47,459 nucleotides of DNA from positions 1 through 47,459 of the forward strand of contig DASZOX010000015.1 in the NCBI GenBank assembly GCA_035550535.1, in the 5' to 3' direction. Shown here in pieces: positions 32,958 to 47,459 of this stretch; positions within the stretch are counted from its first letter, which is position 1; the number at the start of each line of letters is the position of its first letter. Below the pieces are notes generated by a model. That model was not told the origin of the DNA. It saw nothing but the letters and a program-made list of their open reading frames with translations, and did no database searches. This DNA comes from Minisyncoccota bacterium. GTDB taxonomy: Bacteria; Patescibacteriota; Minisyncoccia; Phycocordibacterales; UBA9973. Both the position numbers and the translations under genes were made by a program.

Positions 32958-33145
32958 TGTCCTCTCGGCAGGACGCTTCGCTATCTCACTTCTGGGAAAC
33001 CCACGGTTTTCCCATTCCTTCCTCCACAGGAAACTCTTGTTTCCCGACCCCTTCCCGCCGTTCGATTCCTCGCCTTTAAGGACACAAAGTGTTACTTAGC
33101 CCTACTTAACTCAGTCTTCTGTTACTTCTTGTCCTCTCGGCAGGA
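32958..33145 (-). repeat. tRNA-3'-end-bracketed conserved element, copy A (156-nt core between 16-nt direct repeats; homologous to 46751-46957)
   Basis: TGTCCTCTCGGCAGGA occurs at 33130-33145 (inside tRNA-Arg) and again at 32958-32973. The sequence between the two copies aligns with copy B: a shared GGAATCGAAC block, two hairpins, GTGGAGGAAGG, and a nearly identical 40-nt 3' block. Confidence 0.7.
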
Positions 33146-33203
33146 ATCGAACCTGCATCACAACTTCCGCAAAGTTGCGTCCTATCCATTGAACGACGAG
33201 AGG
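33132..33203 (-). tRNA. tRNA-Arg (anticodon GCG)
   Basis: Hand fold: acceptor CCTCTCG/CGAGAGG (C1-G72), D-arm GTTC-AATGGATA-GGAC, anticodon arm CAACT-TTGCGGA-AGTTG, variable TGAT, T-arm GCAGG-TTCGATT-CCTGC, discriminator A. No CCA is encoded. Confidence 0.8.
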
Positions 33204-41070: not shown

Positions 41071-41116
41071 TTATATCAGAAAAGCATTTTTAAGTTTTTC
41101 GTGCTGGCACGAGCAG

Positions 41117-41188
41117 TGCCCCCGGCAGGAATCGAACCTACAATAACGGCTTAGAAGTCCGCAGTTATATCCATTTAACTACGGGGGC
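41117..41188 (-). tRNA. tRNA-Arg (anticodon TCT)
   Basis: Hand fold: acceptor GCCCCCG/CGGGGGC, D-arm GTTA-AATGGATA-TAAC, anticodon loop CTTCTAA (stem with one A-G mismatch at 31-39), T-arm GTAGG-TTCGATT-CCTGC, discriminator A. Confidence 0.85.
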
Positions 41189-46691: not shown

Positions 46692-46764
46692 GGGGCTTAT
46701 GGTGTAACGGTTAACACTGAGGTTTGTGGAACCTTCGATTCGGGTTCGATTCCCGATAAGCCCC
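46692..46764 (+). tRNA. tRNA-His (anticodon GTG) with encoded G-1
   Basis: Hand fold: G-1, acceptor GGGCTTA/TAAGCCC, D-arm GTGT-AACGGTTA-ACAC, anticodon arm GAGGT-TTGTGGA-ACCTT, T-arm TCGGG-TTCGATT-CCCGA, discriminator C pairing with G-1. Confidence 0.93.
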
Positions 46765-46957
46765 CAATAGAGTTCCCCTTGTTAGGAAGGGTATTGGGGG
46801 CAACAACAAATATGGTTTGTTGTTGGAATCGAACCGGGAAAGGATTGGAAAACGGGAGTTTTCCGTGGAGGAAGGCAGCCCGAGCTTGCCGAGGGCGTTG
46901 GAAAACCATGGGTTTCCAAAGAGTGAGATAGCGAAGCGTCCCGATAAGCCCCCAATA
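46751..46957 (+). repeat. tRNA-3'-end-bracketed conserved element, copy B (169-nt core between 19-nt direct repeats; homologous to 32958-33145)
   Basis: TCCCGATAAGCCCCCAATA occurs at 46751-46769 (inside and just after tRNA-His) and again at 46939-46957. The interior shares blocks and hairpins with copy A. Confidence 0.7.
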
Positions 46958-47046
46958 CAAAACTCCCTCTAAAAATTGACTTTTTTCCTCTTATAATGTA
47001 AAGTTTGCGGAAATTTAAACCGTTTTTTAACAAAAAATCAAATAAA

Positions 47047-47459
47047 ATGAAACTAAAAAATTTATTCGTATCGCTGTTCGCAACGACAGTTTCAGTTGCT
47101 ACCTTTGATCATGCGCATGCCACCAATCGAACATGGATTGGGGCAGGGGCTGGAGGTATCGGAACTAATCTTAACACCGCGGCTAATTGGAGACCTAATG
47201 GAACACCTACTGCTGCCGACAATTGCACTATGAATTTAAATTCAAGTGCAACACTTACCCAGACCGCGACGTCGACATTTGGTACGCTGACGGTCAATGT
47301 TACAACCACCTTTGGGACGACGGCAAATGTTGTGTTCTCTATAACAAATGGGCTTAATGCCACAACGTTTACAGTCTTACCCACCGCCGTTTTGCTTGGC
47401 ACGACTAATGTTACTTTTAATTTCACCACGGGAAATTTCTCTGCTACTACAGCAACGAT
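47047..47459 (+). CDS. Secreted repeat protein, N-terminal part (runs off the window end)
   Basis: Own translation from ATG 47047 gives MKLKNLFVSLFATTVSVATFDHAHATNRTWIGAGAGGIGTNLNTAANWRPNGTPTAADN... This is a signal peptide with an AHA cleavage site, then Thr/Asn-rich beta-type sequence. It is open to the window end. Track ORF 47109..47429 (minus) is its antisense shadow. Confidence 0.55.
   Translation, partial: MKLKNLFVSLFATTVSVATFDHAHATNRTWIGAGAGGIGTNLNTAANWRPNGTPTAADNCTMNLNSSATLTQTATSTFGTLTVNVTTTFGTTANVVFSITNGLNATTFTVLPTAVLLGTTNVTFNFTTGNFSATTAT

Follow-up and report, generated by a model that had tools for sequence, protein, structure and literature searches.

The two elements that follow tRNA genes in the window (the whole 47,459-nt stretch of DNA analysed here), copy A beside tRNA-Arg(GCG) and copy B beside tRNA-His(GTG), are members of a large, uncatalogued family of elements of the ultra-small Patescibacteria that we call core-1. 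When genomes and metagenomes were scanned with the pattern GGAGGAAGG-N-GATAGCGAAGCG, 61 genome loci and 83 metagenome loci matched, with true copies numbering ~54 and ~48, respectively. These ~100 further copies lie essentially all in Patescibacteria (CPR) genomes and metagenomes: every titled record with a copy is a Patescibacteria, Parcubacteria or Saccharibacteria MAG, and the window organism has synteny and proteins in common with copy-bearing genomes. The preliminary description had argued that the two loci were not a pair of decayed prophages, and finding the same ~95-nt scaffold ~100 more times beside many tRNAs and tmRNA in other genomes bears this out. The loci are also not a segmental duplication, the family being one of dedicated small elements, and no existing Rfam family describes it. 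Over the element, the best Rfam 15 scores were 13-19 bits against cut-offs of 43-69, with only the tRNA and tmRNA genes reaching threshold, and a description of the family was not found in the literature, of which our coverage was incomplete. Phage or plasmid origin was rejected, as IMG/VR, INPHARED and PLSDB yielded no true core-1 hits (IMG/VR gave 20 chance hits of the 16-mer). Our best reading, which we hold tentatively and at a little under an even chance, is that core-1 is a miniature non-autonomous integrative element in the tRNA T-loop that regenerates the tRNA and carries a tRNA-minihelix-like small RNA.

Copy B occupies a 190-base stretch after the tRNA-His gene on the plus strand and scores 108 bits against the family covariance model; its repeats, hairpins and motifs were all re-checked and fall exactly where the preliminary description had placed them. 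The host tRNA-His(GTG) (46693-46765; ARAGORN, 62 bits for Rfam tRNA) is intact, has no encoded CCA and is 100% identical to the tRNA at an empty site in locus L085. The exact 19-mer TCCCGATAAGCCCCCAATA is present twice, at 46751-46769 and 46939-46957. Its proximal copy comprises T60, the 3' strands of the T-stem and acceptor, the discriminator and AATA, the last of which is missing from the empty site. A spacer with a weak CCCTT/AAGGG hairpin, no T-run and no promoter (46770-46790) leads into the antisense arm, whose outer part GTATTGGGGGC (46791-46801) is the complement of the acceptor 3' end, discriminator and trailer, matches 46948-46958 as an exact complement, and closes the MFE fold. Between the anti-acceptor and anti-T-stem parts of this arm sits a copy-specific perfect 10-bp hairpin (46801-46825), at the equivalent of the tRNA 65/66 junction, the same junction at which elements L170, L127 and L147 of two other families, B and C, carry analogous hairpins. 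The inner part of the arm, GGAATCGAAC (46825-46834), is the reverse complement of the T-loop GTTCGATTCC.

The conserved core of copy B, seen in an alignment of 50 copies, spans 46835-46922. It is opened by J1 (CGGGAAAGGATT) and continues with hairpin H1 GGAAAACGGGAGTTTTCC (46847-46864), the invariant GTGGAGGAAGG directly after it (46865-46875), an optional GC-rich hairpin or insert (46876-46897), and hairpin H2 (within 46898-46919), with AGA after it. The end block GTGAGATAGCGAAGCG (46923-46938) is made up of a T-loop-like heptamer, GTGAGAT (46923-46929), and the 9-mer AGCGAAGCG (46930-46938), a GCGAAGC mini-hairpin with a GAA loop that falls precisely where tRNA positions 59 and 60 meet in the distal copy. 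The distal sense arm (46939-46958) copies the tRNA from T60 to the discriminator, plus AATAC, and is probably the displaced native 3' end. In comparison with L085, the last 11 nt (46959-46969) are missing from the empty site, and homology restarts at 46970 (TAAAAATTGAC...) in the promoter region of the downstream gene, with a promoter-like site at 46976-47004.

That copy A carries the same modules as copy B was likewise confirmed. This sister element (32958-33203, minus strand; 119 bits) lies 3' of tRNA-Arg(GCG) (33131-33203) and reads, in the tRNA sense, proximal 16-mer repeat (33130-33145), antisense GTGTCCT (33079-33085), GGAATCGAAC (33060-33069), H1 (33028-33045), GTGGAGGAAGG (33017-33027), H2 (32993-33014), GTGAGATAGCGAAGCG (32974-32989) and distal 16-mer repeat (32958-32973), the core being 32974-33069. 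The 16-mer end block is expected 0.4 times at up to 3 mismatches and was observed twice, exactly; 16-mer repeats within 300 nt occurred at 5 positions, all belonging to the copy A and copy B loci, versus 0 in 20 window shuffles; and the element RNAs of both copies fold better than shuffles (z = -3.8 and -2.3). Together these results exclude chance for both loci. No promoter or terminator lies between tRNA and element in either window copy, making co-transcription possible. A second helix, formed by the bases after GAAC with the sense arm (GGCGGGA/TCCTGCC in A, CGGGA/TCCCG in B), has the look of covariation within the window and was rejected as not significant in the family (275/2000 shuffles).

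Across the family the order from 5' to 3' is an intact tRNA, a spacer hairpin, an antisense arm complementary to the T-loop, T-stem and acceptor 3' strand, a ~95-nt core of two covarying hairpins and invariant purine-rich joints, the heptamer, the mini-hairpin, and a sense copy that starts at tRNA T60. Copies are oriented in the tRNA sense and follow tRNA or tmRNA genes on the 3' side, with at least 12 specificities represented: tRNA-Arg (5 anticodons, host of about 40% of copies), Gly, His, Lys, Leu, Glu, Gln, Met, Ala, Pro, Val and tmRNA. The tRNA end lies 8-93 nt upstream of the anti-T-loop. At ~100 loci the 3' part of the tRNA is directly repeated at a spacing of 126-212 nt, and the tRNAs are intact. 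The preliminary description would have been undermined by copies away from tRNA genes; the association holds wherever enough sequence is present, with exceptions at L076, L061 and L041 that are explained by later insertions and further exceptions at L049/L073, L081, L097 and L116.

In the alignment of 50 copies, H1 is 96% paired with 5 compensatory pairs and H2 is 99% paired with 3. The covariation score of 0.285, compared to 0.120 in shuffles, was reached by 0/500 of them and drops when the partners are slid. G·U or U·G pairs outnumber A·C in H1 and H2 (18 vs 2) and A·C or C·A in the arms (29 vs 8), which places the pairing on the tRNA-sense strand, and the plus-strand fold is the more stable one in 50/54 copies. 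On the minus strand a terminator-like hairpin comes after the left arm, which made an RNA from that strand attractive; this was rejected for core-1, as the wobbles would turn into A·C mismatches and the folds are weaker. Coding potential was also rejected, both for a short ORF downstream of the SD-like GGAGG and for a minus-strand frame that stays open across the core, since length differences in the optional hairpin and loops (+10, +12, +16, +18 nt) are not all multiples of three and there is no conserved start codon.

The 9-mer AGCGAAGCG is invariant in 50/50 aligned copies, a count that is partly circular given that the retrieval pattern contained GATAGCGAAGCG; the L127 copy at tRNA-Leu(tag) is without it. 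The heptamer, which is GTTCGAT instead of GTGAGAT in 14/50 copies, has the potential to pair with the antisense-arm segment ATCGAAC, GTGAGAT doing so with a tandem G·A. The invariant joints GGAGGAAGG and AGGAAGGGGG suggest a partner, either a protein or the 16S rRNA 3' end. Core identity is 85-100%, versus 27-34% for neighbouring proteins at the orthologous Arg locus. Such conservation bears on whether the copies could be functionless scars, decayed attL/attR junctions left by the deletion of larger islands or prophages. This is very improbable: although tRNA 3' flanks in these genomes are hot spots of integration, where partial tRNA ends form arrays, and the larger cargo-bearing inserts L076 and L097 end in the same core, scars would not be expected to yield ~100 copies of equal boundaries and size, identities this high across genomes whose flanking proteins are ~30% identical, compensatory changes in two hairpins with invariant joints, or interiors free of gene fragments.

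The arms always track the host tRNA, as the preliminary description had proposed to check, down to the T-loop variant of the neighbouring tRNA. GGAATCGAAC is target-specific in the family and no fixed core motif, its variants GAGACTTGAAC, GGAATTGAAC and GGAGTTGAAC each matching the T-loop of their own tRNA or tmRNA. The suggestion that the internal complement matches the distal tRNA end is true of both window copies, resting on 1 nt in each, and fails as a family rule: over 48 loci that have a proximal copy, positions at which the proximal and distal copies differ follow the proximal sequence in the antisense arm 117 times and the distal one 46 times. The arm is often just 6-10 nt long and usually forms, together with the proximal copy and its trailer, a palindrome of which it is the outer half. 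At L060 the terminator after the distal arm is common to a convergent native tRNA-Val, which points to a native origin of the distal arm.

The idea that the element takes up the 3' end of its target, or uses it as a template, is unproven; cores cluster by genome and not by tRNA, a pattern that is compatible with it and that concerted evolution equally predicts. In its strong form, which we consider quite unlikely, a ~105-nt mobile core would copy the target into both arms and have its specificity re-written at each hop, for example by fold-back or template switching at T-loop microhomology, or by an RNA-guided or RNA-templated step. Such copying would account for nearest-neighbour cores at different tRNAs of one genome (similarity 0.92 for Glu/Arg in H41-bin009, 0.88 for Gly/Lys in E14.256, 0.94 for Arg-cct/Arg-gcg in co185_274 and 0.95 for Gln/Gly in FW305_bin.8), for the match of the anti-T-loop to the target's variant, and for the sense-antisense-sense order of tRNA segments, a signature of two template switches. 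It would also fit the two further unrelated cores (families B and C), which share one arm architecture with core-1, and the copies of their own 3' ends found downstream of 35/98 other tRNAs in these loci. However, the clustering is accounted for just as well by gene conversion among cores, and an enzyme candidate is not known. Even copies with identical cores often have short, imperfect antisense arms, and the imperfect arms of apparently young copies (L058) speak against an exact templating step at insertion. Trailers and terminators usually differ between the proximal and the distal side (L147 is the exception), and the fold-back and re-copy model was rejected for this reason.

The loci bear two marks of att-type integration: a direct repeat of the tRNA end flanking the insert beside an intact tRNA (19 nt in B, 16 nt in A), and empty sites in relatives. 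At L085 the identical tRNA-His lies directly before the downstream gene's promoter region, and the window has 204 extra nt; AATA plus 12 further nt are missing there, so a simple attP x attB event needs an extra indel. For tRNA-Arg(GCG), L173-175 have an empty orthologous site, and L177, L180 and L182 carry other inserts there, L173 and L177 differing in site content next to an identical flanking protein. Arrays of arms are found in L041, L050 and L061. The tRNA and the element of L076 are separated by 1.6 kb of cargo and a decayed arm, a layout expected from successive integrations. A third mark is absent, as no integrase or recombinase was found inside or adjacent to the element in 52 loci, or in the cargo of L097 and L076, where the genes are of lipid or kinase type; none of the copies has an integrase, transposase or reverse transcriptase next to it. 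ORFs of at least 80 aa from the 52 loci clustered into syntenic housekeeping genes only, with no conserved neighbour protein, and the 144 loci (1-15 kb), IMG/VR and the phage and plasmid collections turned up no autonomous relative sharing the element's ends.

These sites also speak to the possibility, which we regard as doubtful, that core-1 is a family of small RNA genes which the host retains and passes on vertically, tied to particular tRNA genes and without mobility at present. Gene conversion would keep the cores within a genome alike, the arms would co-evolve with the tRNA, and empty sites would be losses by recombination between the direct repeats. Vertical descent would suit the element's presence at the orthologous MscL-p156-tRNA-Arg(GCG)...S20 locus in genomes whose neighbour proteins are only 27-34% identical, the very strong constraint on the core, the bias towards tRNA-Arg, and the identical cores with imperfect, not freshly copied arms in L050/L055/L058. 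It sits poorly with close relatives that differ at one site (L173/L177; L085 and the window) and with arrays of different inserts, each followed by an arm copy, which resemble repeated insertion. Nor is L085 a simple product of repeat-mediated deletion, with 16 nt more missing.

An integrative element in the T-loop has many relatives in outline. Integrative elements aimed at the T-loop or 3' end of tRNA and tmRNA genes, together with derivatives that lack a recombinase, namely CIMEs (cis-mobilizable elements) and tycheposon satellites (bioRxiv 10.1101/2020.12.28.424599), likewise insert in the 3' part, regenerate the tRNA and leave a direct repeat, and they share arrays of partial tRNA ends at hot spots and empty sites in relatives; CIMEs, like core-1, have no recombinase inside (PMC5704250). 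Core-1 differs in being ~190 nt long with a ~95-nt core showing RNA-type covariation, in carrying both an antisense and a sense copy of the target, in placing one core at 12 or more specificities, and in having no autonomous parent that we could find. Williams reportedly distinguished, in 2002, sublocation classes of integration within tRNA and tmRNA genes. TnpB/IscB omega-RNAs, encoded at IS200/IS605 right ends, and their miniature derivatives, PATEs, have a ~100-150 nt scaffold followed by 16-20 nt of target, with strand-specific hairpins and non-autonomous derivatives. Core-1 resembles them in its structured scaffold directly before flanking target sequence, its strand-specific hairpins and its non-autonomy, and it is inserted directly 3' of TTCGAT, to be compared with TTGAT of ISDra2 (IS200/IS605). 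In contrast to IS200/IS605 elements, which to our knowledge never restore the target gene, core-1 duplicates its target and restores the gene, and its would-be guide is paired to the internal antisense arm. An IS200/IS605 omega-RNA or PATE was rejected on the target duplication, tnpA and tnpB ORFs not being found, and no Rfam hit of omega-RNA type; an IS110 bridge RNA on the lack of an adjacent recombinase ORF and of Rfam support; and known ribozymes and riboswitches on the lack of Rfam support. The junction bases fit a group I intron (GAT|... ...GCG|), which was rejected: no splicing is needed for a complete tRNA, the insert measures ~190 nt, and Intron_gpI gave no match.

With tRNA-like handles (the tmRNA domain, YrlA, MALAT1 mascRNA, viral tRNA-like structures), core-1 shares paired acceptor/T-stem-like ends, genuine tRNA 3' sequence and a T-loop-like UNNRA pentamer beside a helix. 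Unlike in these handles, the helix is copied from the neighbouring tRNA and reaches the trailer, and a ~100-nt domain takes the place of the T-loop; the Rfam models for tmRNA, YrlA and mascRNA gave sub-threshold noise (13-24 bits against cut-offs of 42-69). RNase P, RNase Z and the CCA-adding enzyme all act on such acceptor/T-stem-like helices.

Folded single-strand recombination sites and origins such as integron attC, CTX phage attP(+) and ssoA of rolling-circle plasmids share with core-1 an orientation-specific fold and extrahelical features, and they raise the unlikely alternative that the fold works as single-stranded DNA. On the plus strand of an excised or transferred element, the heptamer, sense arm, trailer, loop and antisense arm would form a duplex mimicking the tRNA-gene target, with GCGAAGC as an extrahelical crossover mark, by analogy to integron attC and the CTX phage attP(+) hairpin, and the core hairpins might be a single-strand origin. 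Strand-specific pairing that tolerates G·T fits single-stranded DNA and RNA equally, and the palindrome with the proximal copy is the best-kept helix. GNA-type loops cap many hairpins here, and such loops, like GCGAAGC, form exceptionally stable DNA mini-hairpins. The attC R''/R' boxes have the form RYYYAAC...GTTRRRY, to which ATCGAAC...GTTCGAT corresponds in 6/7 positions each by sequence comparison. The upstream terminator-like hairpins speak against read-through transcription, and TAGCGA of the invariant block agrees with ssoA CS-6, TAGCGT, in 5/6 positions (PMC4598088). Against this, such motif matches are short enough to be chance, the RSB of ssoA (TTATGCCGAGAAAATTT) is absent, no IntI gene was found in the loci and no Xer-type, HUH or Rep gene is adjacent. 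Sequence is conserved in core-1, not just structure as in the folded single-strand sites, and its arms pair outside the boxes. A ~190-nt replicon would lack precedent, as we know of none.

Our preferred reading, a T-loop element carrying a small RNA, can be drawn as follows. Site-specific recombination would presumably place the element in the T-loop of a tRNA or tmRNA gene, with nucleotides 59 and 60 on either side of the insertion point. The insert would supply a replacement tRNA 3' end (the proximal repeat), keeping the tRNA intact, then a hairpin with an antisense copy of that end as its distal half, and then the ~95-nt core ending in the heptamer and GCGAAGC mini-hairpin; the native 3' end would be displaced and remain as the distal repeat. 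Core and arms would be used single-stranded in the tRNA sense, most likely as RNA made by read-through of the tRNA gene. The antisense arm and the tRNA-derived sense arm may then form a closing helix that mimics the acceptor/T-stem stack of the neighbouring tRNA, through which RNase P, RNase Z and the CCA-adding enzyme could define and stabilise the ends of the small RNA, while the purine-rich invariant joints (GGAGGAAGG and others) would serve as binding sites for a conserved partner. For the element to move or be retained, a recombinase would have to be supplied by a gene located elsewhere. Several observations weigh against this scheme. The spacer is a terminator-like hairpin in 29/52 family members, with no room for a promoter, which is awkward for a read-through RNA, and since the antisense arm is usually better matched to the proximal copy, the closing helix proposed here does not always offer the best pairing. 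How the arms come to be re-specified for a new tRNA is not explained by a classical att-specific element, and concerted evolution must be invoked.

A broader and rather speculative proposal, which we consider doubtful, is that core-1 and at least the two unrelated cores B and C form a superfamily of ~120-200-nt elements homing to tRNA T-loops, with sense and antisense arms that are target-written whenever an element inserts or that act as guides, a protein-light integration system that is target-templated or guided by nucleic acid, and a tRNA-mimicking small RNA as product. If our reading holds, core-1 elements would in practical terms confuse tRNA and genomic-island annotation in MAGs, and the covariance model would be ready for annotation use. 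One and probably three new families of structured RNAs or elements would be added to a huge and poorly understood bacterial radiation, the Patescibacteria, whose non-coding repertoire is almost unexplored. The tRNA 3' flanks of these tiny genomes would then be busy sites for ~0.2-kb inserts that rebuild tRNAs, and the arm design would raise the question of whether DNA or RNA target specificity can be re-written without a dedicated adjacent protein, which would be relevant to programmable recombination and to tRNA biology.

We found copy B, the element lying 3' of tRNA-His(GTG) (46693-46765, plus strand), to agree with the preliminary description at all positions checked. The last 15 nt of tRNA-His plus AATA (46751-46769) recur at 46939-46957, leaving an interval of 169 nt that holds, all on the plus strand, an antisense segment GTATTGGGGGC (46791-46801) exactly complementary to 46948-46958, a perfect 10-bp hairpin (46801-46825), GGAATCGAAC (46825-46834), which is the reverse complement of the T-loop, a hairpin (46847-46864), GTGGAGGAAGG (46865-46875), a GC-rich insert (46876-46897), a second hairpin within 46898-46919, and the end block GTGAGATAGCGAAGCG (46923-46938). 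As had been claimed, the shared modules are found again in copy A, on the minus strand 3' of tRNA-Arg(GCG) (33131-33203), where the repeats measure 16 nt (33130-33145 and 32958-32973). No 16-mer was repeated within 300 nt in the shuffled window, and both element sequences fold more stably than their shuffles (z = -3.8 and -2.3). Rfam gave no match to the element even at E = 10, and phage, plasmid and IMG/VR collections held no relatives.

Searching a species-representative genome collection and JGI metagenomes with a two-block pattern taken from the scaffold returned 61 and 83 loci, among which ~54 and ~48 are true copies of a family we call core-1; the remainder are chance matches within genes of unrelated bacteria. 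All titled records of true copies are Patescibacteria/CPR MAGs, including the Parcubacteria lineages Yonath-, Taylor-, Kaiser-, Wolfe-, Nomura- and Lloydbacteria, with other records labelled Saccharibacteria, and several genomes carry 2-4 copies. The window organism groups with these Patescibacteria because its MscL and the one from a fetched locus (L076) share 73% identity and because the order MscL, p156, tRNA-Arg(GCG) plus element ... S20 is common to the window, L030, L033, L082 and L084, where p156 retains only 27-34% identity. Host genes comprise tRNAs for Arg (five anticodons, ~40% of copies), Gly, His, Lys, Leu, Glu, Gln, Met, Ala, Pro and Val, as well as tmRNA. A covariance model built from a 50-sequence alignment (A3) identifies a single copy at each locus and, in the window, the two known copies and no others. 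Copy B is a real, non-random member of a widespread and apparently undescribed family.

Read in tRNA sense from A3, a copy begins with the intact tRNA or tmRNA, followed by a trailer with a hairpin that is terminator-like in 29 of 52 loci, the window copies not being among them. The antisense arm that comes next is complementary to the tRNA from roughly position 53 outwards. This arm contains, on its inner side, an anti-T-loop that varies with the T-loop of the target (GGAATCGAAC for TTCGATT, GGAATTGAAC for a tmRNA, GAGACTTGAAC for a tRNA-Leu, GGAGTTGAAC in L114), and its outer part spans 6-10 nt in many copies (median helix 8-9 bp). The core consists of AGGAAGGGGGUC, hairpin H1, GUGGAGGAAGG, an optional hairpin usually capped by a GNA triloop, hairpin H2 and GGA. 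A T-loop-like heptamer (GUGAGAU in 36/50, GUUCGAU in 14/50) and an invariant AGCGAAGCG lead into the sense arm, which repeats the tRNA from T60 until a few nucleotides past the discriminator.

Pairing in A3 is kept at 96% in H1 and 99% in H2, with compensatory double changes at five and three pairs, respectively, and the covariation score of the whole structure is 0.285 versus 0.120 ± 0.007 for shuffles and 0.07-0.11 with slid partners. G·U/U·G outnumber A·C mismatches 18 to 2 in H1/H2, and G·U/U·G outnumber A·C/C·A 29 to 8 in the arm helix; the tRNA-sense strand gives the more stable fold in 50 of 54 copies. Pairing therefore takes place in one single strand of tRNA sense, be it RNA or single-stranded DNA. 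A protein-coding core is ruled out because length differences are not in triplets, and the idea that the copies are pure decay products is very unlikely because the core is conserved. We hold the family, its anatomy and its strand with high confidence.

Relatives differ in what these sites hold. In L085, a relative whose VKOR is 68% identical and whose tRNA-His is 100% identical to the window's, tRNA-His runs straight into TAAAAATTGAC..., where the gene downstream has its promoter region, and the window has 204 additional nt (46766-46969). The orthologous tRNA-Arg(GCG) site is empty in L173-175; it holds another short insert in L177 (flanking protein identical, different sample), still another in L182, and, in L180, a terminator followed by a complete antisense arm, another core of ~65 nt and a sense arm. 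Three kinds of loci point to the distal arm being the native tRNA end, displaced, with newer inserts placed closest to the tRNA: in L060 the terminator 3' of the distal arm serves a convergent tRNA-Val as well; in L076 (1447-3140) 1.6 kb separate tRNA-His from the element's distal arm, with two cargo genes (P-loop kinase-like, 184 aa; UbiA-like membrane protein, 220 aa) and a decayed arm between; and in L041, L050 and L061 arm copies form arrays with different inserts in between. The L076 cargo segment, which has no recombinase gene, is apparently a later insertion into the same T-loop site. No integrase, transposase, HUH, RT or TnpB-like ORFs recur near the element in the fetched loci; its neighbours are housekeeping genes kept through synteny.

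Several loci depart from the standard layout. In L061 (4395-4450) the right end is partly duplicated in tandem, so that the distal arm is followed by an incomplete second unit (AGTGAGATAGCGAAGCG and one more arm copy). The core in L078 (1589-1738, minus strand) runs opposite to its tRNA-Gly and is flanked on each side by the 9-mer AGCGAAGCG or its complement, which looks like inversion between inverted arms. A chimeric copy (L139:1-250) combines an antisense arm that fits the adjacent tRNA-Ala with a tRNA-Glu-like sense arm and has lost the anti-T-loop, probably through recombination between two copies. Two related genomes (L049:1700-2120, L073:830-1240) carry core-1 with a tRNA-Met-like 3' end as distal arm and no recognisable tRNA upstream, where a degenerate arm-like segment TACCGTCTCGGGCAACAAG fits the antisense arm better than the distal arm. 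Upstream of the L069 copy, the host tRNA-Met(CAT) seems to be interrupted in its anticodon loop by a long, group-I-intron-like insertion (~430 nt), and ARAGORN makes no call. In L097, a 9.5-kb contig with no tRNA and no integrase or recombinase along its whole length, a copy with tRNA-Gln-like arms closes a stretch of 9 kb or more of upstream genes for lipid modification (CFA synthase, acyltransferase, UbiA, DUF3419); one more arm copy comes after a second small insert (...GTCGCGGGCGATAAATGTACTCATGG, then TCCAAG), which also occurs in L050. In the window itself, tRNA-Arg(TCT) (41116-41188, minus strand) has the T-loop GTTCGATTCC of both occupied tRNAs yet no element, and none of the seven tRNA genes encodes the 3' CCA as far as inspected. 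The gene 3' of copy B (window 47047-47459; L001:3786-6420) encodes a protein of >1100 aa with a signal-peptide-like N-terminus and a weak match to Por_Secre_tail (T9SS sorting domain), a combination unusual for a Patescibacteria-like genome.

Other cores share this setting. Of 98 further distinct tRNAs in the fetched Patescibacteria loci, 35 are followed within 400 nt by copies, inverted and/or direct, of at least 9 nt of their own 3' ends. At least two further conserved cores have the layout antisense T-stem/T-loop, core, GC hairpin and sense arm from inside the T-loop, neither with an Rfam match. Family B (...TCGAAAG-RCTTTTC...GAAAAGYACC...) has seven copies 3' of tRNAs (two in L025; L032, L051, L053, L127, L170), a GC hairpin with a GTA loop, a sense arm from G57 and a core unrelated to core-1. 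Family C (...GAAAG-CCGGAGNCATG-hairpin-GGC-GAGGCGGGGTCGCG-long hairpin-GTGACC, then the tRNA sense arm from inside the T-loop) has 15 (L024, L031, L033 twice, L042, L048, L061, L065, L070, L117, L125, L147 three times, L153), at times in tandem with core-1 or itself (L147, L043). At ordinary tRNA genes of these genomes (L086:3494-3625; L051, tRNA-Leu-tag) the stem of the terminator hairpin takes in the last 7-11 nt of the tRNA, the acceptor 3' strand, so short natural "antisense arms" occur without any core.

Cores group by genome and not by tRNA. Copies may hop between tRNAs and have their arms re-written, which is the target templating first proposed from the sequence and which fits the sense-antisense-sense order of segments and the sharing of one architecture by three unrelated cores; exact templating, however, is at odds with imperfect arms beside identical cores (L050/L055/L058) and with trailers that differ on the two sides. 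Equally, old copies may have been homogenised through gene conversion. The related claim that the internal complement matches the distal end is true of one additional base in each of the two window copies and goes no further, because across the family the antisense arm, where the two sense copies differ, agrees with the proximal one 117 times and with the distal one 46 times.

The reading that best accounts for the facts, held with moderate confidence, makes the element a miniature, non-autonomous insert of the integrative kind, lodged in the T-loop of a tRNA gene. It would restore the tRNA, and the native 3' end would persist as the distal repeat. This pattern is the classical mark of integrative elements that target tRNAs and of their derivatives without a recombinase. 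Unlike those, core-1 is only ~190 nt long, carries an antisense copy of its target and has a core 85-100% conserved with RNA-type covariation beside flanking proteins ~30% identical. In a rival to the small-RNA reading proposed below, the folded strand would be a single-stranded att site, by analogy with attC, CTX attP(+) or ssoA, with the GCGAAGC mini-hairpin marking the crossover as an extrahelical feature. This is favoured by a palindrome with the proximal copy that is well kept and by the terminator-like hairpins upstream of the element, but the motif resemblances are short.

For the product we propose, with low confidence, that core plus arms may constitute a small RNA made by read-through of the tRNA gene in organisms such as that of the window, whose copies have no terminator or promoter between tRNA and element. 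We infer that its two arms, antisense and sense, would pair into a helix that mimics the acceptor/T-stem stack of the adjacent tRNA and has a T-loop-like UNNRA pentamer next to it. RNase P, RNase Z and the CCA-adding enzyme recognise helices of this type, and such recognition could set and stabilise the ends of the putative RNA, while its invariant purine-rich joints would have a conserved protein or the anti-Shine-Dalgarno end of 16S rRNA as candidate partners.
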